64,000 nucleotides of DNA. Source: Parcubacteria group bacterium. GTDB lineage: Bacteria; Patescibacteriota; Minisyncoccia; Moranbacterales; UBA11712. Every line of letters begins with the position of its first letter. Position 1 is the stretch's first letter. Made by a program: the position numbers and the translations under genes. This document shows positions 3,068 through 54,632 of the stretch, piece after piece. The notes beneath the pieces are model-generated. The model did no database searches. It worked only from the letters and a program-made list of their open reading frames with translations, and was not told the origin of the DNA. The stretch lies in assembly GCA_041659685.1 (NCBI GenBank), contig JBAZXV010000006.1:2032-66031 (forward strand), written 5' to 3'.

Positions 3068-3409
3068 TTGATTAATGTTTAGGTTAACAATTATACTGCT
3101 AAGGAAGAATATAACATAAATGGAGTTTTAGCAAGGGGCGATCGAAGAAAACAGCTTATATCAGCAGATAATAAGGATTTTAGGAGGATAATATCGAACT
3201 CGTTGTCCTTCCGATGAAAGTGATAAATCGGCGGCCTGATAAGGTTGATATTTTATCTCCGCCGTGCTATTATTCCTTATGCAATGAGCTATAGGCTTTA
3301 TTTTTTATGTCCGGCGGCGATTTCTTCAGAGCTTCGGTCGCCGGAAGTTTAAGTTTTAATTCCAAGGTCGCCGATTTATTATTTATAGAAAGGCGAACTG
3401 ATATCAGGT

Positions 3410-4078
3410 ATGACCATTCAATGGTACGGACATTCTTGTTTTAAGATTTCAACCAAGCCCGAGGGGCGCGGTTCAGGGGAAGATGTGATTGTTTTCACCG
3501 ATCCTTTTCAAAAGGAGATCGGACTCCGCCCTCCCCAGGGAAAAGCCGATATTGTGACAATAAGCCATGACCATAATGACCACAATAACTCAGATGCTCT
3601 CAGAGGAGAGCCGGCGGTTTTGGACATACCAGGAGAATATTCTATTAAAGGAGTTTCGATTAAGGGGGTCAGTTCTTTCCACGACAAGAAGGAAGGGATG
3701 GAAAATGGCTTAAACACAATATTTATATTCGAAAGCGAAGGCGTGCGATTTTGCCATCTTGGCGATTTAGCAACGCCTCTTGACAAGAAGCAGCTTGAGG
3801 AAATAAACGGAGTTGACATTTTGGCGGTCCCGGTCGGAAACCGAAAATCTCTTAATGGAAAGGAAGCTAAAGAGGTGATCGGCCAGATCGAACCGAAGAT
3901 TATTCTGCCAATGCACTATAAAATCGAAGGATCGAAATTTCAAGGCGACGACGAGAAAGTTTTTTGCAAGGAAATAGGTTCTTGTCCAAAGGAAAAACTG
4001 GCAAAATTAATTATCAAAAAGAAGGATTTGGAAGGAAAGGAGATGGAAATAGTCATGATGGAGGCATTGAGCAGCTAA
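3410..4078 (+). CDS. MBL-fold metallo-hydrolase
   Basis: 222 aa; HxHxDH metal-binding motif (ISHDHNDHN). Confidence 0.7.
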   Translation: MTIQWYGHSCFKISTKPEGRGSGEDVIVFTDPFQKEIGLRPPQGKADIVTISHDHNDHNNSDALRGEPAVLDIPGEYSIKGVSIKGVSSFHDKKEGMENGLNTIFIFESEGVRFCHLGDLATPLDKKQLEEINGVDILAVPVGNRKSLNGKEAKEVIGQIEPKIILPMHYKIEGSKFQGDDEKVFCKEIGSCPKEKLAKLIIKKKDLEGKEMEIVMMEALSS

Positions 4079-4632: not shown

Positions 4633-7065
4633 ATGGAAATAGGGTACATAAAACCAAGAGAAATAACGAAAGAGATGAAAGAGTCTTATCTCGCTTACGC
4701 GATGAGTGTTATCGTATCGAGAGCTCTTCCGGATGTTCGTGACGGGATGAAACCGGTCCATCGCCGGATTCTTTATGCCATGCGCGGGTTGGGTCTAACC
4801 CATGCGGCGAAATACAGAAAGTCGGCTACGGTAGTCGGAGAAGTACTCGGAAAATACCATCCGCACGGAGATTCTGCTGTTTACGACTCTATGGTGAGAC
4901 TCGCGCAGGATTTTTCCATGCGCTACCCTCTTGTCGACGGACAAGGGAACTTCGGATCAATGGATGGAGACAGCGCGGCGGCGATGCGTTATACGGAAGC
5001 CAAGCTTATGCCTCTGGCTGAAGAAATGATGGCCGATATTGAAAAGGATACGGTCGATTTTATACCCAACTATGATGCGTCAAGAGAGGAGCCCTCTGTT
5101 CTCCCGACCAAAGTTCCCCAGCTCCTTCTTAATGGTACGATGGGAATCGCAGTCGGAATGGCGACAAATATTCCTCCCCATAACCTGGGAGAATTGGTTG
5201 ACGGCCTTATCCATATTATTGAAAATCCGGATTGTGAGGTAAAAGATCTGATGAATTTCGTAAAGGGGCCCGATTTTCCGACCGGAGGATCGATTTTCAA
5301 TCAAAATGACATAAACCAGGCATATCTTACGGGGCGGGGCGGGATAGTTACGCGAGCCGAGACTGAAATTATGGAAACCAAAAACGGCCAATTCCAGATT
5401 ATCGTAACCGAGATGACCTATGCGTCAAACAAAGCAACGACCATATCAAAGATCGCCGAACTCGTGAAAACGGGAAAGATTGAGGGAATCAGAGACATTC
5501 GGGACGAATCAGATAAAGACGGAGTAAGGATTGTCATTGAACTCAAGAAGGAAGCTTTTCCAAAAAAGGTCCTTAATAAGCTTTACAGCCTTACCGATCT
5601 TCAAAAATCGTTTCATGTGAATATGCTGGCGCTTGTGGACGGAATTGAACCGAAGATTTTAAATCTCAAGGCAATATTGGAGCATTTCATCAACCACAGG
5701 CGTGTGGTTGTTACCCGCCGGACAAAATTCGATCTTCAGCGGGCCAAGGATCGCGCGCACATACTTGAAGGACTCAAAAAGGCGCTTGACCATATCGATG
5801 CCGTGATTAGCACAATAAGAAAATCACCCGACAAGGAGGCAGCCCATTCAAACCTTATGAAAAAGTTCAAGCTTTCCGATAAGCAGGCAGCCGCTATTTT
5901 GGAAATGAGGCTTCAGACGCTTGCCGGGCTTGAAAGAAAGAAAATAGAAGATGAATTGAAGGAAAAAAGAGGGTTCATAAAAGAACTCGAAGATCTTCTG
6001 AAGAGTCCCAGAAAGATTTTGGGCGTCGTGAAGAAAGAGCTTACGGAACTCAAGGAGAAATACGGAGATGAGAGAAAAACGCGCGTCGTGAAATCGGCCG
6101 TGGGCGAGTTTAAACAGGAGGATCTTATTCCCAATGAGGAGACAATCATCGTTCTTACGGAAGATGATTACATCAAACGCATGCCTCCTTCGTTTTACCG
6201 TGTTCAAAAAAGAGGCGGAAAAGGCGTGATCGGAGCGGCAACCAAAGAAGGAGATACGATTGATCGGGTGGTGACCGCCATGACTCATGACAGTCTTTTC
6301 TTTTTTACAAACACCGGCAAGGTGTTCCAATCCATGGCCTATGAAATTCCCGTTTCGTCGCGAATTGCCAAGGGTCAAGCCATTGTGAACTTTCTCCAGA
6401 TTGCGCAAGGCGAAAAAATTACCGCCATTATTTCAATCAGCAAAGACAGCCAGGCAAAATACCTGTTTATGACCACCAGACTGGGAACAGTAAAAAAATC
6501 AGCCATTTCTGATTTTGCCAAAGTCCGGCGTTCCGGCCTTATTGCTTTAAATCTGGCAAAGGATGATGAGCTTCGATGGATTGCGCCTATAGCGGGGAAG
6601 GATGAAATAATAATAACAACGGCTTCCGGTCAGGCTATTCACTTCAAGGAAACGGACGTTCGTCCGATGGGACGCGGGGCGGCTGGAGTACGCGGAATCA
6701 AACTAAAAAAAGATGATCTGGTAGTCGGAATGGATCCTGTTTTCAAGGAACAAAAGGGAAATCAACTGCTCGTTCTTACTGAGAACGGATTTGGGAAAAG
6801 AACAGACTTAAAAAGCTATAAAATTCAGCGGCGGGGCGGCTCAGGGATTAAAACCGCAAAGGTAACACCTAAGACGGGAAAACTGGTTTCAGCCCACGTA
6901 GTCAACACAGACGGACTTGAGGCGGATCTGATTGCAAGTTCCGCTAAAGGCCAGATAATCCGAACACCCCTAAAAACCATTTCTGTTTTAGGAAGAGCTA
7001 CGCAGGGGGTGCGCGTAATGAGGTTTAATCAAGACGACAAAATTGCGGCCACGACGGTTCTCTAG
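4633..7065 (+). CDS. gyrA: DNA gyrase subunit A
   Basis: 810 aa; N-terminal signature [28 protein letters not shown] with the active-site Tyr region; C-terminal beta-pinwheel repeats. Confidence 0.93.
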
Positions 7066-7114: not shown

Positions 7115-7328
7115 GATGACTTTGCATTAAATTCCCGGTTTGTATCTTTTTTCTGTTTATTGTAAAATTCAATTAACATTTCAGAAGCCACAAGGAGATT
7201 TTTAAAATAAATCGGCATTAACCTTTTCGATGCTATTGCTTGCCCGGAAATAATATTGTCAAGAAGGAGCATCCCCGTTCTCCGCCTGCCGGCGACAAGC
7301 ATCCAAAATAAAAATTAATCCAAATTGA

Positions 7329-12369: not shown

Positions 12370-12723
12370 ATGAATAAAATAAAGTCAGTTATTAGAAAAA
12401 TCGGAATTGGAGCGGTAGTGATTCCCTTTACGGCCCTGGCTCAGTTTCAGCCTCCTTCCGGAACGAATCTTCCGCAATCTTCTATTTATGACATCATCAG
12501 AGGCGTTATGATGTGGGTGTTGGGACTTCTCGGTTTTTTCGCGGTTATCGGTTTTGTGATCAGCGGTATAATGTATCTTGTGGCGGCTGGAGACGAGGAT
12601 TCGCAAAAAAAGGCGAAGAAAGCCATGTATTATTCCATAACCGGGGTGATTGTCGGTTTGGTTGGTCTGGTTGTGATATATGCCGTCAACAAATTGCTGG
12701 GAACAACGTCAACTCAGTTCTAA
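12370..12723 (+). CDS. VirB2/TrbC-like pilin family protein (single module)
   Basis: SD AAGGAGGTGA 5 nt before the ATG at 12370 (the ORF-track TTG start at 12352 overlaps the SD). Signal peptide, then ISGIMYLVAAGDEDSQKKAKKAMYYSITGVIVGLVGLVVIYAVN. Confidence 0.55.
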   Translation: MNKIKSVIRKIGIGAVVIPFTALAQFQPPSGTNLPQSSIYDIIRGVMMWVLGLLGFFAVIGFVISGIMYLVAAGDEDSQKKAKKAMYYSITGVIVGLVGLVVIYAVNKLLGTTSTQF

Positions 12724-12900
12724 GGCGCGTTATATTGCCGATACTATCATTAGCGGCTCTCGACAAGAGGGTCGCTTTTCTATTTCCTGACTGAAAATAT
12801 CGATTTGGGATAAAATCCGGACTATTTCCAGTTTTTAAAATGTATTATATAATCAGGTTGGGAGAATTCTTCGCGAAATAATCAATCTAAGAGAAATAAA

Positions 12901-13269
12901 ATGAAAAACAAAATTGAAAAAACGCTTGCTTTGACAGTAGGTTTCGTTGGAAGTGTCAGCGCCGCTTTTGCTGCTCCAAGCGGATGGAGCACCTCGAATT
13001 ATTCCGGCATGGGTCTTCCGGGCGGATCTATTTATAATATAATCAGCAATACAGTGATGTGGGTTCTGGGTATTTTCGGTTTTATTGCCATAATCGGTTT
13101 TGTGATCAGCGGTATAATGTATCTCACGTCCGCCGGAGACGATGCCGCCATGAAAAAAGCTAAAAATCAGATGACCTGGTCCATAATCGGAGTCGTTGTC
13201 GGATTGGTCGGATATATAGTCATATATGCGGTTAATTCCATGCTCGGCGGGATATCCACCAGTTTCTAG
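12901..13269 (+). CDS. VirB2/TrbC-like pilin family protein (single module)
   Basis: 122 aa; signal peptide; ISGIMYLTSAGDDAAMKKAKNQMTWSIIGVVVGLVGYIVIYAVN, near-identical core to the next paralog. Confidence 0.55.
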   Translation: MKNKIEKTLALTVGFVGSVSAAFAAPSGWSTSNYSGMGLPGGSIYNIISNTVMWVLGIFGFIAIIGFVISGIMYLTSAGDDAAMKKAKNQMTWSIIGVVVGLVGYIVIYAVNSMLGGISTSF

Positions 13270-13294
13270 AAAAATTAATTAATCAGCCAGCAAA

Positions 13295-13648
13295 ATGAAA
13301 AAAACAAAGGGAGTCATTTTTTGCGCGTTAGTCATTTTTTTATTTTTCTTTATCGGAAAAGCCTCTGCTGACGGAGTACTTCTTCCGGATGTCGGGCTTC
13401 CCAGCAAGGGACTCCCGGATATTATCGAAGGTCTCGTTAAATGGCTTTTGGGAGTTTTCGGTTTTCTGGCGATTCTCTCCTTTATTATCAGCGGAGCGAT
13501 GTATTTTTTTTCCGCCGGAGACGATGCCGCCATGAAAAAAGCCAAAAATCAGATGAAGTGGTCCATAATCGGCGTTGTTGTCGGTTTGATGGGATATGTC
13601 GCTATTGCGGCCGTCGATTCGGCATTGCGGGGGAACGGCTTGGGATAA
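13295..13648 (+). CDS. VirB2/TrbC-like pilin family protein (single module)
   Basis: 117 aa; signal peptide; ISGAMYFFSAGDDAAMKKAKNQMKWSIIGVVVGLMGYVAIAAVD. About 85-90 percent nt identity to the preceding gene over ~100 bp, indicating a recent tandem duplication. Confidence 0.55.
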   Translation: MKKTKGVIFCALVIFLFFFIGKASADGVLLPDVGLPSKGLPDIIEGLVKWLLGVFGFLAILSFIISGAMYFFSAGDDAAMKKAKNQMKWSIIGVVVGLMGYVAIAAVDSALRGNGLG

Positions 13649-15259: not shown

Positions 15260-15333
15260 TCGAACGGGAAAGGGGTCGGGAAAACGGGAGTTTCCCCGTG
15301 GCGGAAGAATTGAAACCGAGGGGTTTCAAAGAG
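15260..15333 (+). repeat. tRNA-associated ~74-bp repeat, copy 1 (TCGAACGGGAAAGGGGTCGGGAAAACGGGAGTTTCCCCGTGGCGGAAGAATTGAAACCGAGGGGTTTCAAAGAG)
   Basis: Starts 2 nt after the tRNA-Leu discriminator; contains an 8-bp hairpin TTGAAACC-GAGG-GGTTTCAA. It is followed at 15351-15370 by a duplicated 3' fragment of tRNA-Leu (GAGAGTCTCCCCCACGGCAC). Confidence 0.85.
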
Positions 15334-15371
15334 GCGTGAAGCGACGAAGTGAGAGTCTCCCCCACGGCACC

Positions 15372-15405
15372 TCGAACGGGAAAGGGGTCGGGAAAACGGG
15401 AGTTT
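15372..15405 (+). repeat. tRNA-associated repeat, truncated copy 2
   Basis: Identical first ~33 nt (TCGAACGGGAAAGGGGTCGGGAAAACGGGAGTT), then diverges; follows the duplicated tRNA-Leu 3' fragment. Confidence 0.7.
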
Positions 15406-15483
15406 TACCTCGGAGAAAGGTATCTGAAAGGGAATATTGATAACAATATTTATTTTTTTGGACAGTATTTTGAATTAATAAGC

Positions 15484-15558: not shown

Positions 15559-15632
15559 TCGAACGGGAAAGGGGTCGGGAAAACGGGAGTTTCCCCGTGG
15601 CGGAAGAATTGAAACCGAGGGGTTTCAAAGAG
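15559..15632 (+). repeat. tRNA-associated ~74-bp repeat, copy 3
   Basis: Identical to copy 1; followed at 15633-15663 by a duplicated 3' fragment of tRNA-Val (CGAGGTTCGATTCCTCTCGCGCCCAC). Confidence 0.85.
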
Positions 15633-15666
15633 CGCAGCGAGGTTCGATTCCTCTCGCGCCCACATT

Positions 15667-15705
15667 GCCGGGCTAGCTCAGTCCCGCCGGGGGCGGGCAG
15701 GGTCC
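15667..15705 (+). pseudogene. tRNA-like chimera: 5' acceptor/D-arm of tRNA-Phe fused to a CCCGCC...GGCGGGCAGGGTCC GC-hairpin module
   Basis: GCCGGGCTAGCTCAGT is identical to the tRNA-Phe 5' end, then CCCGCCGGGGGCGGGCAGGGTCC. No anticodon arm or T-arm. A related module occurs at 34967-35025. Confidence 0.5.
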
Positions 15706-15753
15706 GAGCAGAGGACTTGAGTTTAAAGTAAAATTAACATCCGAATAATTCTA

Positions 15754-15825
15754 GCCGGGCTAGCTCAGTGGTAGAGCAGAAGACTGAAAATCTTTGTGTG
15801 CCCAGTTCGATTCTGGGGCCCGGCA
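15754..15825 (+). tRNA. tRNA-Phe (anticodon GAA)
   Basis: GCCGGGCTAGCTCAGTGGTAGAGC; anticodon stem GAAGA/TCTTT with loop CTGAAAA; T-arm CCCAGTTCGATTCTGGG; discriminator A. Confidence 0.85.
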
Positions 15826-15840
15826 CAGTTAATGTAATCT

Positions 15841-15912: not shown

Positions 15913-15952
15913 CAGAAAACGAAAGAATCCCCCCCCCTGGGGGATTTTTTTG
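15913..15952 (+). terminator. Rho-independent terminator of the tRNA cluster
   Basis: AATCCCCC-CCCT-GGGGGATTTTTTTG; the stem includes a C9 homopolymer. Confidence 0.65.
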
Positions 15953-50057: not shown

Positions 50058-50247
50058 ATTATTACTTGGCTTAAGATAAACTACCTCGCGTTTTTTCTGT
50101 GCGAGGGAATCGCAAACCATCCTCTTTTCAGGATGGTTTGCATTATCAATTGCCGAACTGAAGCGGACGGTTATTCGCTCGGCAGGAATTAGAGACCGGC
50201 CAGGTCATTGCCAGGATAACAATTTTCCAATAGGATATAAAAGTGTC

Positions 50248-50318
50248 CGGGCTGTCGTATACCGGTAGTACGCATGCTTTGGGAGCATGTCGACTGGGTT
50301 CAATTCCCAGCAGCCCGA
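50248..50318 (+). tRNA. tRNA-Pro (anticodon UGG)
   Basis: Acceptor CGGGCTG/CAGCCCG; anticodon stem CATGC/GCATG with loop TTTGGGA; T-arm CTGGGTTCAATTCCCAG. Confidence 0.75.
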
Positions 50319-50320
50319 AA

Positions 50321-50393
50321 TCGAACGGGAAAGGGGTCGGGGAAACGGGAGTTTCTCCGGGGTGGAAGTATTGAAACCGAAAGGTTTCAAGGA
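50321..50393 (+). repeat. tRNA-associated ~74-bp repeat, copy 4 (variant TCGAACGGGAAAGGGGTCGGGGAAACGGGAGTTTCTCCGGGGTGGAAGTATTGAAACCGAAAGGTTTCAAGGA)
   Basis: Begins 2 nt after tRNA-Pro; hairpin stem TTGAAACC/GGTTTCAA is preserved with loop GAAA. Followed by hairpin CCGCCAGATGGCGG and a duplicated tRNA-Pro 3' fragment (ATTCCCAGCAGCCCGAAA, 50418-50436). Confidence 0.85.
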
Positions 50394-50471
50394 TCCGCCA
50401 GATGGCGGAAACGTGAAATTCCCAGCAGCCCGAAATAAGAAGAAATAGTAAATAATAAGAGTATTCGCGCT

Positions 50472-50816
50472 ATGATCGAAGATGGATCAGGCTTTGAGAA
50501 CAAGGATATCGGTTACAGAGCGGAAATCAGGCTTAGATTTGTGAAAGAGCTTGCTTGGAAGCTTCAATCGGCTAAAATTTGTTTTGATGCGTTAGAGCGA
50601 AAACCGCACGATGAATCACTGAGAGCGGATCTTGAAAACCGCAGAAAAGAATTTGCGGAGGCCGTCGATAGGTTCATTGAGGAAGAGCGCAGCCGCCCGA
50701 CTGTCAAGATAAACGCGGCATCCCTTTCGAAGCTGAAGGAATACTGCGAATTCAGCTGGGAAGAGGGAGAACGTCTTAAGGAATTAATGAGGAATGTTTC
50801 CGAGATGGCAAATTGA
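50472..50816 (+). CDS. Hypothetical protein
   Basis: 114 aa helical protein located between two tRNA-repeat units. Confidence 0.35.
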   Translation: MIEDGSGFENKDIGYRAEIRLRFVKELAWKLQSAKICFDALERKPHDESLRADLENRRKEFAEAVDRFIEEERSRPTVKINAASLSKLKEYCEFSWEEGERLKELMRNVSEMAN

Positions 50817-50874
50817 CGCGAGCGGTGGGAGAGAGTTTACTATATGTCTGGACTCCTATAATATAAAAATACCT

Positions 50875-50946
50875 GCGGGTGTTGTATAATGGCTATTACA
50901 TCAGGTTTCCAACCTGAGGACGAGGGTTCGATTCCCTTCACCCGCT
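50875..50946 (+). tRNA. tRNA-Gly (anticodon UCC)
   Basis: Acceptor GCGGGTG/CACCCGC with discriminator U; anticodon stem TCAGG/CCTGA with loop TTTCCAA; T-loop TTCGATT. Confidence 0.8.
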
Positions 50947-50947
50947 C

Positions 50948-50988
50948 ACTGAAACGAAAAATCTCCTTAAGGGGATTTTTTGTTTTGC
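50948..50988 (+). terminator. Rho-independent terminator after tRNA-Gly (ATCTCCTTAAGGGGATTTTTTG)
   Basis: Hairpin plus T-run. A 34-nt segment including it (50946-50979) is repeated at 52321-52354. Confidence 0.65.
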
Positions 50989-51006
50989 TGAATATGAGGG
51001 TGGGAA

Positions 51007-51080
51007 TCGAACGGGAAAGGGGCCGGGGAAACGGGAGTTTCTCCGGGGTGGAAGTATTGAAACCGAAAAGTTTCAAGGAG
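51007..51080 (+). repeat. tRNA-associated ~74-bp repeat, copy 5
   Basis: TCGAACGGGAAAGGGGCCGGGGAAACGGGAGTTTCTCCGGGGTGGAAGTATTGAAACCGAAAAGTTTCAAGGAG; followed by hairpin GCGAAGCGACGTTCGCTTC and a duplicated tRNA-Gly 3' fragment (CCCTTCACCCGCTCAG, 51097-51113). Confidence 0.85.
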
Positions 51081-51356
51081 CGAAGCGACGTTCGCTTCCC
51101 TTCACCCGCTCAGTTTTCGAAAAATTCAAATCAAGGCTTTCACAAAACTTTTTCCAGTTCTGACCAAAAAATTATTTTCACAAAAATTGGCTTGCTTGAT
51201 CCCTTTTTTGTGTGAATTTTCTTCATATTTAAGGCAAAATATCTCCTCAAAAACTTGGTTCTAGCTGTGTGCCCTTGCTTCTGTCGAACTTACGGAAGCA
51301 CGACTTGACAAAAATAGTGAATAGAGTATGATAATAGTATAATATTCACTAAAAAT

Positions 51357-52247
51357 ATGCCAGTGACTCGTCCTATCAAAAACCACATTCAGGCCTTGAA
51401 AAAACAGTATGATATCCTCAAAAAAGGCAAAGATTCGCTTTTGAATTTGATCGACCAGACCGAAATTCCGGAAAGCGTCTACAATTCAAATGCTATCGAA
51501 AATTCAACTTTGACATTCAAAGAGACGGAGAAAATACTTTTGGAGATGGAAATGTCTCGCGATGTCAGTGTCAGGGAAGTATACGAAGCCAAAAATCTGG
51601 CTCGCGTCATGGATTACATTAAGAAAAAGTCGGAAGAATCGGAAATCAATAGGGAGCTGATTCTTCTGCTTCATCAAATGCTTATCGGTGGCATTGATGA
51701 TAATATTTCCGGACGGTTCAGAAATACAGGCGAGTATGTTCGAGTGGGAACACATATCGCGCCGCCTCCAGAAAAAGTGAGCAGTATGATTGCGGTGATA
51801 ATAAATCAATATGTGAGTGACAAGGAAAAATATTTTCTCGATAAAATTTCCCTATTTCACCTTGATTTTGAAACTGTCCATCCGTTTTGTGACGGCAATG
51901 GCCGAATTGGCAGAGCGCTGATGTGCTATCAGCTGGTTCAATTAGGCTATCCGCCGATAATTATCCGTGATAAAGAAAAAGGAAATTACTATAATGCTTT
52001 TGGCGAGTACAGATTCAAAAAGAATACCAAGCCAATGGAAAAAATAGTTGCTCTTTCTGTGATGGAATCTCTGCACAAACGCATAGCCTATCTTTCCGGA
52101 GAAGAAATCATTACCTTGTCCGATTATGCTAAAATAAAAAACAAAAAAGCGCCAGCCTTGTTCAACGCGGCGAAGCGCCAAAACATTCCTGCTTTTCGGG
52201 AAAGGGGAGTTTGGAAAATCAGTTCCGATTGGAAAGATAGCAAATAA
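51357..52247 (+). CDS. Fic/DOC-family protein (putative AMPylase or related nucleotidyl/phosphocholine transferase)
   Basis: 296 aa; Fic active-site motif HPFCDGNGRIGRALM. Confidence 0.85.
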   Translation: MPVTRPIKNHIQALKKQYDILKKGKDSLLNLIDQTEIPESVYNSNAIENSTLTFKETEKILLEMEMSRDVSVREVYEAKNLARVMDYIKKKSEESEINRELILLLHQMLIGGIDDNISGRFRNTGEYVRVGTHIAPPPEKVSSMIAVIINQYVSDKEKYFLDKISLFHLDFETVHPFCDGNGRIGRALMCYQLVQLGYPPIIIRDKEKGNYYNAFGEYRFKKNTKPMEKIVALSVMESLHKRIAYLSGEEIITLSDYAKIKNKKAPALFNAAKRQNIPAFRERGVWKISSDWKDSK

Positions 52248-52320
52248 GAAAAGGATAAAAAAATATCTTAGCCAAGCATCTTTTCCATAAATCCGGTTCT
52301 AACCGCGTGTACTAGTCAGT

Positions 52321-52354
52321 TCACTGAAACGAAAAATCTCCTTAAGGGGATTTT
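52321..52354 (+). repeat. Direct repeat of the tRNA-Gly 3' flank and terminator (TCACTGAAACGAAAAATCTCCTTAAGGGGATTTT)
   Basis: 34 of 34 nt identical to 50946-50979. The two copies bracket repeat copy 5, the tRNA fragment and the Fic gene. It also acts as a terminator between convergent genes. Confidence 0.8.
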
Positions 52355-52376
52355 CATTTCTGTAGCAAGCACTAAG

Positions 52377-52631
52377 TCATTTTCTTATCAATTCTTTCAA
52401 CTCCTTATATTCCTTGCTTTTATCAATTATTTCTTGAAAATATTTATTGCTTTTCCAATATACTTTATATGCATTCGCACTAGATCTTGAAGAAATGATT
52501 CTGTAAGTTTTGTCTATAATTTCAAGCGCGCAATAATTATCAACTGCGACGGCGACACCGGGAGTCTTTTTCATCATTTTTTTCAAATCAGCTTTTCTGT
52601 GTATCTGCGTGTCGTAATGAAGATTAAACAT
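52377..52631 (-). CDS. Hypothetical protein
   Basis: 84 aa ORF convergent with the Fic gene. Confidence 0.35.
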   Translation of the reverse strand: MFNLHYDTQIHRKADLKKMMKKTPGVAVAVDNYCALEIIDKTYRIISSRSSANAYKVYWKSNKYFQEIIDKSKEYKELKELIRK

Positions 52632-52685
52632 CCTGGCTTTTTCCTGATATAATTAAAGCGATCAGTAAGGCTTTAGATTAATATT

Positions 52686-53723
52686 ATGAAAAGAATGGAA
52701 TTTCGTGCAGGCGAAGAATCTTTACCTGACAAAGCAGCGAAAAAAAATGCCAGTGGAGCTGATCTGAGTCCCTTCAAGGAAGGGGCGGTAGGGAAAAGTA
52801 TTTCTGAAGGTTCGCATGCGAATATTCATGAGATAAACAAGCCAAGAGAGGGTTTTCCGGATAGGATAGTTAAAATCGGGAAAACGGATGGTTATACGCC
52901 GCCTCTTTTAAGCGATAAACTGCGAATCAAATTTTCCAGAAAAAGAGTCAGTGACGCCTTGGTTAAGCTGTTCGGGCCGAGATTTCAAATTCATCCGGAC
53001 CAGGATTTTATTAAAAACGGAGTGGCGGAATACTTAATCATGAGGGAATATTTTGGGCATGACGGAAGAGAAGATAAAAATACCAGCCAAAAAAATCGCA
53101 GAGAATTATTGGCTTCGCTGGAGGATCATGGCAACCCATTCTATAAAGAGATGGCGTGCGTTCTCGGCGATAACGGATTAATTGCTGAAACCATCCAAGT
53201 TCTCAAAAATCACCAGCATGATAATTTTCTTCCTGAGGAGCAAACAATTATCGGCCATCCGCCCAATGCAGTTCATGGACAGGCGGGGAGTTTCCGGGCC
53301 AGGGGCGAGAAATTGCCGGTCACTTATTATATTTATCAGGAAAAAATCGCCGGTTCAAACACCGTTCCGCTCCGGGAGTTAAGCGACGAGGAACTATTGA
53401 AGTATCCAAAATTAATTGAAAAATTACTTACTTTTGCGATTTTAACCAAAAAAATGTATTTCGACACCGGTAAATTAATTGACACAAGGCCTGAAGAGCT
53501 GGCAAAGCATCCCTTTGAGTGGTTTCAAGAGACGGCTAATATTTTAGTGAACAAAGATGAACAGGAATTATCGTTTACTGACACTCGCTGGCTTTGGGAT
53601 GGGGACAGCCGCGTAGGAAAAGAAGGGGTGAACCTTGTAAAGCATCTTGGGATAAAGTCGGTTAACGGCGCCATAAGGAAATACGCCGGCATGCTAAAAT
53701 CACTGAGGAGGATGCGGTTATGA
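52686..53723 (+). CDS. Hypothetical protein
   Basis: 345 aa; no motif recognised. Confidence 0.4.
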   Translation: MKRMEFRAGEESLPDKAAKKNASGADLSPFKEGAVGKSISEGSHANIHEINKPREGFPDRIVKIGKTDGYTPPLLSDKLRIKFSRKRVSDALVKLFGPRFQIHPDQDFIKNGVAEYLIMREYFGHDGREDKNTSQKNRRELLASLEDHGNPFYKEMACVLGDNGLIAETIQVLKNHQHDNFLPEEQTIIGHPPNAVHGQAGSFRARGEKLPVTYYIYQEKIAGSNTVPLRELSDEELLKYPKLIEKLLTFAILTKKMYFDTGKLIDTRPEELAKHPFEWFQETANILVNKDEQELSFTDTRWLWDGDSRVGKEGVNLVKHLGIKSVNGAIRKYAGMLKSLRRMRL

Positions 53724-53852
53724 TTTTTTTCCGGCAGGGCGCTATTTACTTAACGTCCTGATCCGCCTTTGTTTGCAACGGGAGTATTCTAAAACGCCGG
53801 TTTTATGTCTGTGATATAATTATTTTATGTGATAATTCGCGATTATAGAGCC

Positions 53853-54632
53853 ATGAGAAAATACGGCGTTGATAAAAATGGATTTATTAAATCAGGGGCA
53901 GGTCTTAATGAGATAAAGGCGCCCTTTAAAAAAATCGTTACCGGTTCCAGGCGAGAAATTATCGGTAAATTTGGAGGCAAAATACACAGCATATATATTT
54001 ACGGAAGCGCGGCAACCGGAAAGGCCCGGCCCCGAATATCGGATTTAGATATCCTCGTCGCGTTCAGGAAAAAGCCGACTTCCGAAATTGAAGAACAAAT
54101 TAAGGATCTCCAGAATATATTGTCAAACAAATTTCGGCAGGCGGTTCGCAAAGTCGACATTGTTTCAATTTTTGTTAAGGAAGCAACCGGCGACAAATAT
54201 GGCTGGGGCTGCTTTATAAAACACCTCTCGGTTTGCGTTTATGGAACCGACCTTTCAAAAAATTTACCGAAATTCAAACCGTCAAAAAAAATCGCCTCTG
54301 CATTCAACAGCGATATCGGAAAATGTTTGGATGACACTCTGGAAAAATTAGAGTCTATTTCGGATGACAGGGAAGTTATAAATCTATGCAGGGAAACCAT
54401 GAGAAAAATTGTTCGCGCGGGATTCAGCCTGGTTATGGACCGGGAAGAATCCTGGACTTCTGATCTTGATAAATCCTGCGAAGTATTTTCGAAATACTAT
54501 CCGGAGCAAACTCTGAAAATGAAGAAGGCTCTTGCAATGGCCAAAAAACCGCTGGCGGATAAAAAAACATTAGCGGATTTCCTTAACGGATTTAGATACT
54601 GGCTGACGAGGGAGGCAAATAGAAAGCTGTAG
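53853..54632 (+). CDS. Nucleotidyltransferase-domain protein (AadA/ANT(3'')(9)-like fold)
   Basis: NTase motif IYIYGSAATGKARPRISDLDILVAF followed by a helical C-terminal domain, as in aminoglycoside/streptomycin adenylyltransferase family proteins. ATG at 53853 preferred over the GTG at 53829. Confidence 0.55.
   Translation: MRKYGVDKNGFIKSGAGLNEIKAPFKKIVTGSRREIIGKFGGKIHSIYIYGSAATGKARPRISDLDILVAFRKKPTSEIEEQIKDLQNILSNKFRQAVRKVDIVSIFVKEATGDKYGWGCFIKHLSVCVYGTDLSKNLPKFKPSKKIASAFNSDIGKCLDDTLEKLESISDDREVINLCRETMRKIVRAGFSLVMDREESWTSDLDKSCEVFSKYYPEQTLKMKKALAMAKKPLADKKTLADFLNGFRYWLTREANRKL

Follow-up and report, generated by a model that had tools for sequence, protein, structure and literature searches.

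Accessory DNA that has integrated at tRNA genes leaves a recognizable signature, in which the tRNA gene is regenerated, a displaced fragment of the tRNA marks the far end of the island and an integrase is present (PMC4383910). Fic enzymes, for their part, are assigned to class II when an inhibitory motif, (S/T)xxxE(G/N), lies N-terminal to the Fic core in the same polypeptide (PMC10628234); Fic enzymes can also bear a C-terminal DNA-binding domain, as in CbFic2 and CccR (PMC10628234, PMC9755527), and SoFic-type proteins act through AMPylation-based abortive infection (10.1101/2022.05.11.491447; PMC12249575). Here we consider a locus at which these themes meet: a Fic gene that lies behind tRNA-Gly(UCC) in a Parcubacteria group bacterium (GenBank assembly GCA_041659685.1, contig JBAZXV010000006.1), between two copies of a 34-bp direct repeat and next to a tRNA-linked structured element that we call E. 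The 64,000-nt stretch analyzed, positions 2,032 to 66,031 of the contig, is referred to below as the window, and coordinates are those of the window. A first-pass annotation made from the sequence alone had read the interval as one small cassette, integrated at the tRNA 3' end with duplication of its attachment site. We favor a different reading, to which we give a probability of roughly 55%: the site would be a hotspot that has collected independent items, and the 34-bp repeat a by-product of this history rather than the attachment-site duplication of a single cassette.

A variable site behind tRNA-Gly(UCC)

The 34-mer TCACTGAAACGAAAAATCTCCTTAAGGGGATTTT occurs in two exact copies, at 50946-50979 and 52321-52354, and, as had been annotated, the left copy begins on the last bases of tRNA-Gly and runs into its terminator. 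The tRNA gene itself (50875..50947, + strand) is intact according to ARAGORN and scores 64.3 bits with the Rfam tRNA model. On the same strand, the left copy comprises the last 3 nt of the tRNA (TCA), the native trailer and most of the hairpin of the native intrinsic terminator (50952..50985, not assigned to a strand), a 15-bp A-tract/T-tract hairpin that looks bidirectional. The terminator hairpin contained in the 34-mer has a folding energy of -16 kcal/mol (z = -6.06), and the native terminator forms the apex of a long imperfect palindrome together with the 5' arm of the adjacent E copy. The right copy (+ strand) repeats the tRNA-Gly trailer and terminator as a secondary copy, has its hairpin at 52333-52354 and sits between the Fic gene and a convergent open reading frame (ORF), ORF84.

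The 34-mer is not a common terminator in any of the collections searched, namely GTDB representatives, JGI metagenomes and IMG/VR, so the objection that had been foreseen for a repeat of this kind does not apply there. No third copy with up to three mismatches is present in the 64-kb window, which is the part of the source genome that the search covered (such a match arose in 0/100 shuffles), and the next-best match, at 7326, is 68% identical. The exact 34-mer is absent from 185,579 GTDB representative genomes and from JGI metagenome contigs, and its 31-nt trailer part has no exact match in IMG/VR.

To place the interval in context, two syntenic loci, L144 and L145, were reached through homologues of the 345-aa ORF at 52686-53723. 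L144 belongs to a Candidatus Moraniibacteriota metagenome-assembled genome (MAG) in which RNase Y and HU match those of the window at 83% and 78% at the amino acid level and tRNA-Gly at 95% over 80 nt. Its gene order is iPGM, RNase Y, HU, tRNA-Pro, 11 nt, tRNA-Gly(UCC), terminator, ~75 nt and a 344-aa gene, with no insert between the tRNA-Gly terminator and the 344-aa gene; it thus provides the insert-free locus that the first-pass annotation had suggested looking for in related genomes. L145 has the same order but carries an unrelated, orphan 178-aa gene between the terminator and its 341-aa gene. The body of the window tRNA-Gly(UCC) is identical to that of L145 and has two compensatory differences from that of L144, and window positions 50870-50983 align at 85% with the tRNA-Gly, trailer and terminator of L145. 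Homology to the relatives restarts with the TGATATAAT promoter in front of the 345-aa gene, at 52639-52645, and what lies between (~50984-52638) is window-specific: E(Gly), a 182-nt spacer, the Fic gene, the second 34-mer and ORF84. An empty site in one relative and other cargo in the second support a reading of the slot behind the tRNA-Gly(UCC) terminator as a variable insertion hotspot. An insertion behind tRNA-Gly, the broader half of the original proposal, is supported, whereas its narrower half, a single cassette with a 34-bp attachment-site duplication, is not.

The two copies of the repeat are not equivalent. The trailer of tRNA-Gly(UCC) resembles that of tRNA-Gly(GCC), which starts at 15914, and the similarity takes in the TTTTTTGTTT that comes after the left 34-mer (0/2000 shuffles); the T-run that continues past the left 34-mer is found in L144 and L145 as well. 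These sequence comparisons show that the left copy is the trailer and terminator native to tRNA-Gly, with an orthologue in L145 and a paralogue in the tRNA-Gly(GCC) trailer. Since orthologous terminators have diverged (85% against L145 over tRNA and terminator) while the two 34-mers are identical, the duplication is recent. The left copy is followed by TTGTTTTG and the right copy by CATTTCTG and then ORF84, both of which are without counterpart in L144 and L145 until ~52639. As the right copy is followed by sequence that is not ancestral and homology returns only at that point, the topology is not that of an insert bounded by direct repeats within ancestral flanks.

Between the repeats, the first-pass annotation had listed a fifth copy of a tRNA-linked repeat (core from 51008) and a 3' fragment of tRNA-Gly, and both are indeed there. 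Together they make up one element, E(Gly) (50996..51112, + strand; 113.1 bits with covariance model R1). Its 5' arm (50996-51007) is antisense to the acceptor/T region of tRNA-Gly, its conserved core with hairpins P2 and P3 spans 51008-51080, and 51081-51112 contain the 3' arm together with a GCGAAGC-type hairpin; the final 23 nt of the element, 51090-51112, copy the tRNA-Gly 3' end and are identical to it at 22/23 positions. Because E is found behind many tRNAs with arms that copy them, the tRNA-Gly fragment is the element's own 3' arm, and fragment and repeat copy belong to a separate element instead of being the attachment relic of a Fic cassette.

It is in this light that a single cassette has to be judged. 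A ~1.4-kb unit consisting of the E copy and Fic, integrated within the 34 bp at the tRNA-Gly 3' end, would be bounded by attL and attR and might excise as a 1,375-bp circle. An exact 34/34 repeat that begins on the last tRNA bases, the empty site of the syntenic L144 and a stop in L145 homology no more than a few bases from where the left copy ends are all as such an event would leave them, as is the lower GC content of the interval (0.36-0.40 across 51100 to ~52900, vs 0.45-0.47 upstream); a k=31 Logan contig also ends exactly at the repeat, such that the assembly graph permits a circle as well. We nevertheless consider this origin unlikely. E sits in its usual place after a tRNA, as it does without Fic in over 40 other genomes, and has arms that match tRNA-Gly, which argues that it was installed by its own process and not as cargo. 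Past the left copy, the T-rich bases look ancestral; the bases past the right copy are not ancestral, and ORF84 is missing from the relatives. Of the tRNA itself no more than 3 nt are duplicated; the remainder of the repeat is fast-evolving trailer, a poor target for a mobile element. Moreover, two more distant loci, L061 and L142, have tRNA-Gly followed by Fic without either E copy or repeat.

Measured against the tDNA-island signature as used by Islander, the locus has an insert-free site in a related genome (L144). The sole tRNA fragment (51090-51112) is proximal to Fic, within E, and TCA is all that the far-end repeat has in common with the tRNA. There is no tyrosine integrase, nor any other recombinase, between the repeats, where Fic is the sole gene, and a domain search detected no recombinase in the neighboring genes up to 55546.

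The same Logan contigs (k=31; SRR18595301) bear on the possibility that the MAG contig was misjoined at the 34-bp or E repeats. In sequence they are identical to the window, yet they break at 51039 within E, at 52354 at the 34-mer and at tRNA-Pro, that is, at every repeat, so that connectivity across the 34-mers comes from the MAG assembly alone. Repeats of 34 bp, however, are far below read length and are spanned by standard assemblers, the order tRNA, terminator and E 5' arm is canonical in dozens of genomes, and L001 matches the window without a difference across 1,316 nt. A misjoin at the 34-mers is therefore unlikely, and an assembly artifact is the least probable of the explanations that we considered.

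A structured element linked to tRNA genes

E is widespread. Its core, CGAACGGGAAAGGGGNCGGGNAAACGGGAG, was found in 57 stretches in GTDB representative genomes, nearly all of them from Patescibacteria, among which are Saccharibacteria, Paceibacterota, Moraniibacteriota and Jorgensen-, Nomura-, Berkel-, Harrison-, Colwell- and Liptonbacteria. The ~75-nt core is near-invariant from one phylum-level lineage to another, with GGGAAAGGGGUCGGGAAAACGGGAGUUUUCCCGUGGCGGA and a covarying hairpin of the form xGAAACCGNNNGGUUUCx. When 62 copies were compared, 47 lay no more than 120 nt 3' of a same-strand tRNA, with 27 anticodons represented, and 42 had an exact copy, at least 12 nt long, of upstream sequence (usually the tRNA 3' end) ~60-125 nt past the core. 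The common layout is a tRNA, often a terminator-like hairpin, a 5' arm that is antisense to the acceptor/T region of the tRNA and ends in GGAATCGAAC, the core, variable hairpins and a 3' arm composed of GT(TC/GA)GATTCC and the last ~17 nt of the tRNA. RNAalifold analysis of 35 copies returned two hairpins: P2, with one covarying pair (8 sequences double-changed), and P3, with four covarying pairs (12-20 of the 35 sequences changed on both sides).

We found no match to E in Rfam 15, where only tRNA reaches its gathering score and, over 50200-52400, the hits at E <= 5 are at chance level; ARAGORN called no transfer-messenger RNA (tmRNA) at E, and our literature search for a tRNA-linked RNA element in Patescibacteria returned no description of it.

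Within the window, the covariance model detects four full copies of E; there are none in L144, L145 or L142, nor in L060, another of the loci with a related Fic gene. The window copies, at 15260-15371, 15559-15667, 50319-50436 and 50996-51112, with a truncated one at 15372-15420, adjoin tRNA-Leu, tRNA-Val, tRNA-Pro and tRNA-Gly, and the cores of the Leu and Val copies are identical. The copy closest to E(Gly) is E(Pro) (50319..50436, + strand; 116.4 bits with R1), which is fused to the 3' end of tRNA-Pro(UGG) (50248-50318) and terminates in a 20-nt copy of that end; the orthologous tRNA-Pro genes of L144 and L145 have no E. The cores of E(Gly) and E(Pro), 700 nt apart, are identical at 73/75 positions while their arms differ, and E(Gly) therefore looks like a recent local derivative. 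Behind tRNA-Gly, E is missing from L061, L142, L144 and L145.

The insertion of E(Pro) and of ORF114 (50472..50816, + strand), an orphan of 114 aa between E(Pro) and tRNA-Gly, has enlarged the spacer between tRNA-Pro and tRNA-Gly, which measures 10-15 nt in L061, L144 and L145. On the far side of E(Gly), the 182-nt spacer C (51113..51294, not assigned to a strand) is without relatives in any fetched locus, although its first ~27 nt have a weak likeness to the L142 tRNA-Gly trailer (26/2000 shuffles).

Two roles for E were considered and rejected. As a platform for cargo genes it is a poor candidate: at 39 loci the genes after it lie on either strand, and often they are housekeeping genes (judged by sequence, they include D-Ala-D-Ala ligase-like, polyprenyl synthetase-like and CCA-adding-enzyme-like genes), and among all E copies a distant repeat of the trailer accompanies only the Gly copy of the window. 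Nor does E regularly duplicate the tRNA trailer or terminator, as trailers were significantly similar at 3/30 loci only. What its distribution and covariation would fit, although we advance this tentatively and hold it to be somewhat less probable than not, is an undescribed class of structured RNA in Patescibacteria that installs itself behind tRNAs with its closing arms re-templated on each, and that, by providing another tRNA 3' end plus trailer, would make extra landing sites for accessory genes such as the Fic module. If E is mobile or functional, it bears both on the plasticity of tRNA loci and on RNA biology in the Candidate Phyla Radiation. Being widespread and without an Rfam family, it is the part of this locus that most deserves attention.

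The window contains other repeats as well. A duplicate of the 16 nt with which tRNA-Phe (15754-15826) begins, GCCGGGCTAGCTCAGT, lies 86 nt upstream of that gene, in the region 15668-15753, and the two copies are parted by a GC-rich, hairpin-like segment (CCCGCCGGGGGCGGGCAGGGTCCGAGCAGAGG...); this may represent another small element that copies tRNA ends, here the 5' end. Three 179-nt copies that are 70-77% identical lie at 12514-13620, upstream of tRNA-Leu(UAG), and a 71-nt repeat pair (30342-30412/39684-39754; 85% identical) contains two GC hairpins (CCCCCTACGGGGG, CCACCCGCAGGGTGG).

The Fic module and its boundaries

The gene between the 34-mers (51357..52247, + strand) was correctly recognized from its HPFCDGNGRIGR motif as a Fic-family gene, and encodes 296 aa. 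Residues 97-193 match the Pfam Fic domain PF02661 with 67.5 bits (cut-off 24; E = 1.9e-18), the catalytic motif HxFx(D/E)GNGRxxR is present as H175-PFCDGNGRIGR186 and is invariant in 22 family members except at C178, and the closest relatives in the PDB are human FICD structures (5e-24). The first-pass annotation had found the inhibitory motif not obvious and suggested an unregulated or trans-inhibited enzyme. The motif is in fact present, as SNAIEN at residues 44-49: VYNSNAIENSTLT of the window protein aligns with IYHTVAIEGNTLT of FICD, placing S44-N-A-I-E48-N49 on T-V-A-I-E234-G, and VYNSNAIENSTLT is invariant in the 22-member alignment, as are HPFCDGNGRIGR and a C-terminal NAA(K/R)RQNIPAFRE(R/K)GVWKI. 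Because S44-NAIE48-N49 agrees with the published definition and resides in the same polypeptide, the protein is a FICD-like Fic of class II, predicted to be self-inhibited, and would not need a trans-acting antitoxin. The lack of a small ORF upstream, already remarked upon, holds: no same-strand ORF of at least 40 aa that might encode a class I antitoxin lies within 51113-51356, the only ORF listed there (50889-51215) runs over the tRNA and E, and the downstream ORF84 is convergent and without a family.

Judging from family membership, the protein would be an autoinhibited FICD-type AMP-transferase/de-AMPylase, and a role as a single-gene module for abortive infection or stress is plausible. 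Its family is large, with more than 8000 relatives, and remains at ~70% identity across Parcubacteria lineages. The PADLOC models PDC-S04 (8.4e-36) and SoFic (1.2e-27) match it, and the NCBIfam SoFic equivalog gives 29 bits against a cut-off of 550. A Pfam search with the C-terminal 50 aa gave no match, and an AlphaFold2 model built from the 22-sequence alignment was poor (pLDDT 49). A phage origin was also considered and rejected, as neither the E core nor a close Fic relative nor the 34-mer is present in IMG/VR.

Upstream of the gene is the best promoter-like site of the region (51305..51332, + strand), TTGACA-16-TATGAT, a sigma-70 promoter that agrees with consensus at 11/12 positions. It is bracketed by an inverted pair of TAGTGAATA at 51315-51323 and 51343-51351 that we regard as a putative operator, TAGTGAATA-N19-TATTCACTA (promoter and operator together, 51305..51351); its two TAGTGAATA copies are the only ones in the window. 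The layout of promoter and operator is kept in L060, L061 and L142, and, as read from the sequences, the half-sites co-vary in more distant Fic loci. Fic thus probably represses its own promoter, through its C-terminal tail.

L060, L061 and L142 are the closest Fic loci, and the block that the window shares with them extends from 51295, at the promoter, to 52323. The latter position is the end of a conserved 43-nt motif, M (52281..52323, + strand), TTTTCCATAAATCCGGTTCTAACCGCGTGAACTAACCAGCTCA, which forms the 3' boundary of the Fic module and whose last TCA constitutes the first 3 nt of the right 34-mer. With a promoter and palindromic operator of its own, an intact inhibitory helix and M at the 3' end, the Fic gene forms a self-contained unit. 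Further copies are found in L060 (3676-3718 and 5200-5242), L061 (1181-1222), L142 (1090-1131) and L144 (7055-7097), where M marks the 3' boundary of Fic, of a GNAT gene (L060) or of the 344-aa gene (L144), and similarity among the copies ends at the same TCA. In L091 Fic is flanked by a related but longer 3' element (~120 nt), which in L083 comes after the gene. As an integron-like attC site M was rejected, since by eye it offers only a loose RYYYAAC-like TTCTAAC and no matching inverse core.

In L144, M follows directly on the 344-aa gene and ends in a triplet that, on the opposite strand, is the stop codon of an IS481-like transposase gene (one case; NCBIfam IS481, 4.5e-61, just below the cut-off). 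M may therefore be the end of an insertion sequence (IS), or a target of IS activity or recombination. One could go further and suppose that M is an IS481-like terminal repeat or preferred target, that an IS formerly beside Fic, and since lost, brought M together with a tRNA-Gly terminator copy, and that Fic moves by IS activity instead of tRNA-directed integration. This would explain why M abuts the transposase stop codon and why similarity among M copies stops at the same TCA every time; a possible imperfect terminal repeat, TTTTTCC..ATAA, is present at the other end of the L144 element, and L060 has two direct M copies around Fic and a GNAT gene. The link between M and an IS end comes from a single IS copy, however, and the window contains neither a transposase remnant (ORF84 is unrelated) nor a recognizable target-site duplication, and Fic lies on the outer side of M and not within the putative IS. 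We therefore think it improbable that an IS produced the arrangement.

Fic genes recur behind tRNAs in other genomes. In L061 and L142, whose proteins are 85% and 81% identical in amino acid sequence to that of the window, Fic comes immediately after tRNA-Gly(UCC), with neither E(Gly) nor the 34-mer present, while in L060 it lies elsewhere, together with the GNAT gene between the two M copies. Fic is thus at tRNA-Gly in the distant L061 and L142 and not in the nearer L144 and L145, a patchy association as expected for repeated gain at a preferred site. Among 61 distinct and more distant metagenome loci, seven have a same-strand tRNA (Trp, Asn, Ser, Arg) within 400 nt upstream of Fic, vs 1.0 expected (Poisson 8e-5). 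In L139, Fic and one other gene lie between two copies of tRNA-Arg(CCG).

Repeats of other kinds also flank Fic. In L073 (and also L072), from a more distant lineage, Fic and the next gene are parted by three ~150-nt repeats (3349-3499, 5005-5155 and 6443-6593; …AAAGTCCCAGATTATCTCCT…GGAATGCAATCNGRACCGAGCTGTTGAGCCA) that differ from the other repeats, and Fic-flanking repeats with lineage-specific sequences recur in L093 and L131 as well.

To the right of the module, ORF84 (52377..52631, - strand) is an orphan of 84 aa that is missing from L144 and L145. Neither ORF84 nor ORF114 has a match in Pfam, NCBIfam or PADLOC or a relative in any fetched locus, and exact-protein look-ups of ORF114 and the 345-aa ORF returned no match. 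Further on, two genes past the interval, a nucleotidyltransferase (Polbeta/NTP_transf_2; 53829-54632) gives a weak PADLOC match to PDC-S09/oligonucleotide cyclases (6e-9 to 1e-5), and the region past the hotspot, this gene included, may also be accessory or defense-related.

Origin of the arrangement and relation to known systems

Three junctions define the arrangement: tRNA 3' end and trailer at 50948/50949, E 3' arm and the left end of the Fic unit at 51112/51113, and M and trailer at 52323/52324. TCA is common to all three. In the reading that we prefer, the Fic unit (about 51113-52320) would have inserted between the tRNA-Gly 3' end (...CCCGCTCA) and its trailer. A second tRNA-Gly 3' end would have been supplied by E(Gly), as a recent derivative of E(Pro), such that this junction came to exist twice. 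The outcome would be one junction of tRNA 3' end and Fic-left and one of M and trailer, with trailer and terminator present once behind the tRNA and once behind Fic. Recombination could have been carried out by an enzyme acting in trans or have relied on short homology, TCA being common to both partners. By one route, E would already have duplicated the trailer and Fic arrived later, through an intermediate allele in which the ...CCCGCTCA of E is directly followed by CTGAAACGAAAAATC. By another, Fic would have come first, at the tRNA's own 3' end, through an allele in which the ...CCCGCTCA of tRNA-Gly is directly followed by GTTTTCGAAAAATTC, and E(Gly) would have been gained later by recombination from a Fic-free allele. 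Both routes yield the observed structure; the exact junction and the order of events are inferred. The right 34-mer would now act as terminator for both Fic and the convergent ORF84.

Several observations weigh against this account. No allele was found in which E(Gly) is directly followed by the trailer, nor, in the same species, one that has Fic but lacks E. In other genomes, sequence beyond the E arm is usually unlike the tRNA trailer (significant similarity in 3/30), and a 31-nt trailer duplication by E would be among the longest observed. Past the second 34-mer, ORF84 is window-specific too, which points to a right-hand history beyond a single Fic insertion. The end of M, CCAGCTCA, resembles the tRNA-Gly 3' end, CCCGCTCA, and M was evaluated as a diverged 3' half of tRNA-Gly (attR) but rejected, its alignment being no better than those of shuffled sequences (1401/2000 and 700/2000). 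The majority of the distinct metagenome Fic loci (54/61) are not beside a tRNA, and no displaced tRNA fragment was found downstream of Fic at the tRNA-adjacent loci except L139. Finally, DNA binding by the Fic tail is supported neither by a family (Pfam) nor by structure (AlphaFold2, pLDDT 49).

What the locus offers is a clean example of gene gain, with the empty site preserved in a relative, in organisms with very small genomes and few recognizable mobile-element genes. The exact duplication of a terminator provides a concrete and testable junction model for the entry of modules without an integrase, and a conserved FICD-like Fic, predicted to be autoinhibited, appears as an accessory module that is recurrently found in the slot behind tRNA genes of Patescibacteria. 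The Fic part of the locus adds to kinds already known, class II Fic proteins and accessory DNA at tRNA genes.

Compared with FICD/HYPE, EfFic and CbFic2, the window protein shares the fold, the HPFx(D/E)GNGRxxR motif and the N-terminal inhibitory helix, all in a single polypeptide without an antitoxin. It differs from FICD in having no tetratricopeptide repeat or transmembrane part, and from FICD types more generally in its ~50-aa C-terminal tail without a Pfam match and in the unusual conservation of its family. With SoFic/PDC-S04 it has in common a PADLOC match and its occurrence as a stand-alone gene in an accessory variable region, although there is no small same-strand downstream gene like AS1.

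The described RNAs that E most resembles are those linked to tRNAs, such as the small RNAs of 3' external transcribed spacers and the tRNA-like domain of tmRNA. Like them, E occupies the position of a tRNA 3' trailer and is closed by an acceptor-like helix whose end is exactly that of the tRNA; its 5' GGAAUCGAACGGGA also bears an apparent resemblance to the 5' GGAUUCGACGGGA of tmRNA. Unlike them, it is associated with 27 anticodons, its arms are re-matched to each tRNA, and it is present or absent between close relatives in the manner of a mobile element.

With respect to tDNA islands and their CIME-like derivatives that lack an integrase, the differences are that the insert here begins after the terminator, that 3 nt of the tRNA are repeated and that no integrase is present. 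The features in common are accessory DNA 3' of a tRNA gene, an empty site, a repeat at the tRNA 3' end and, as in tDNA islands, the recurrence of the same cargo behind the same tRNA across lineages.

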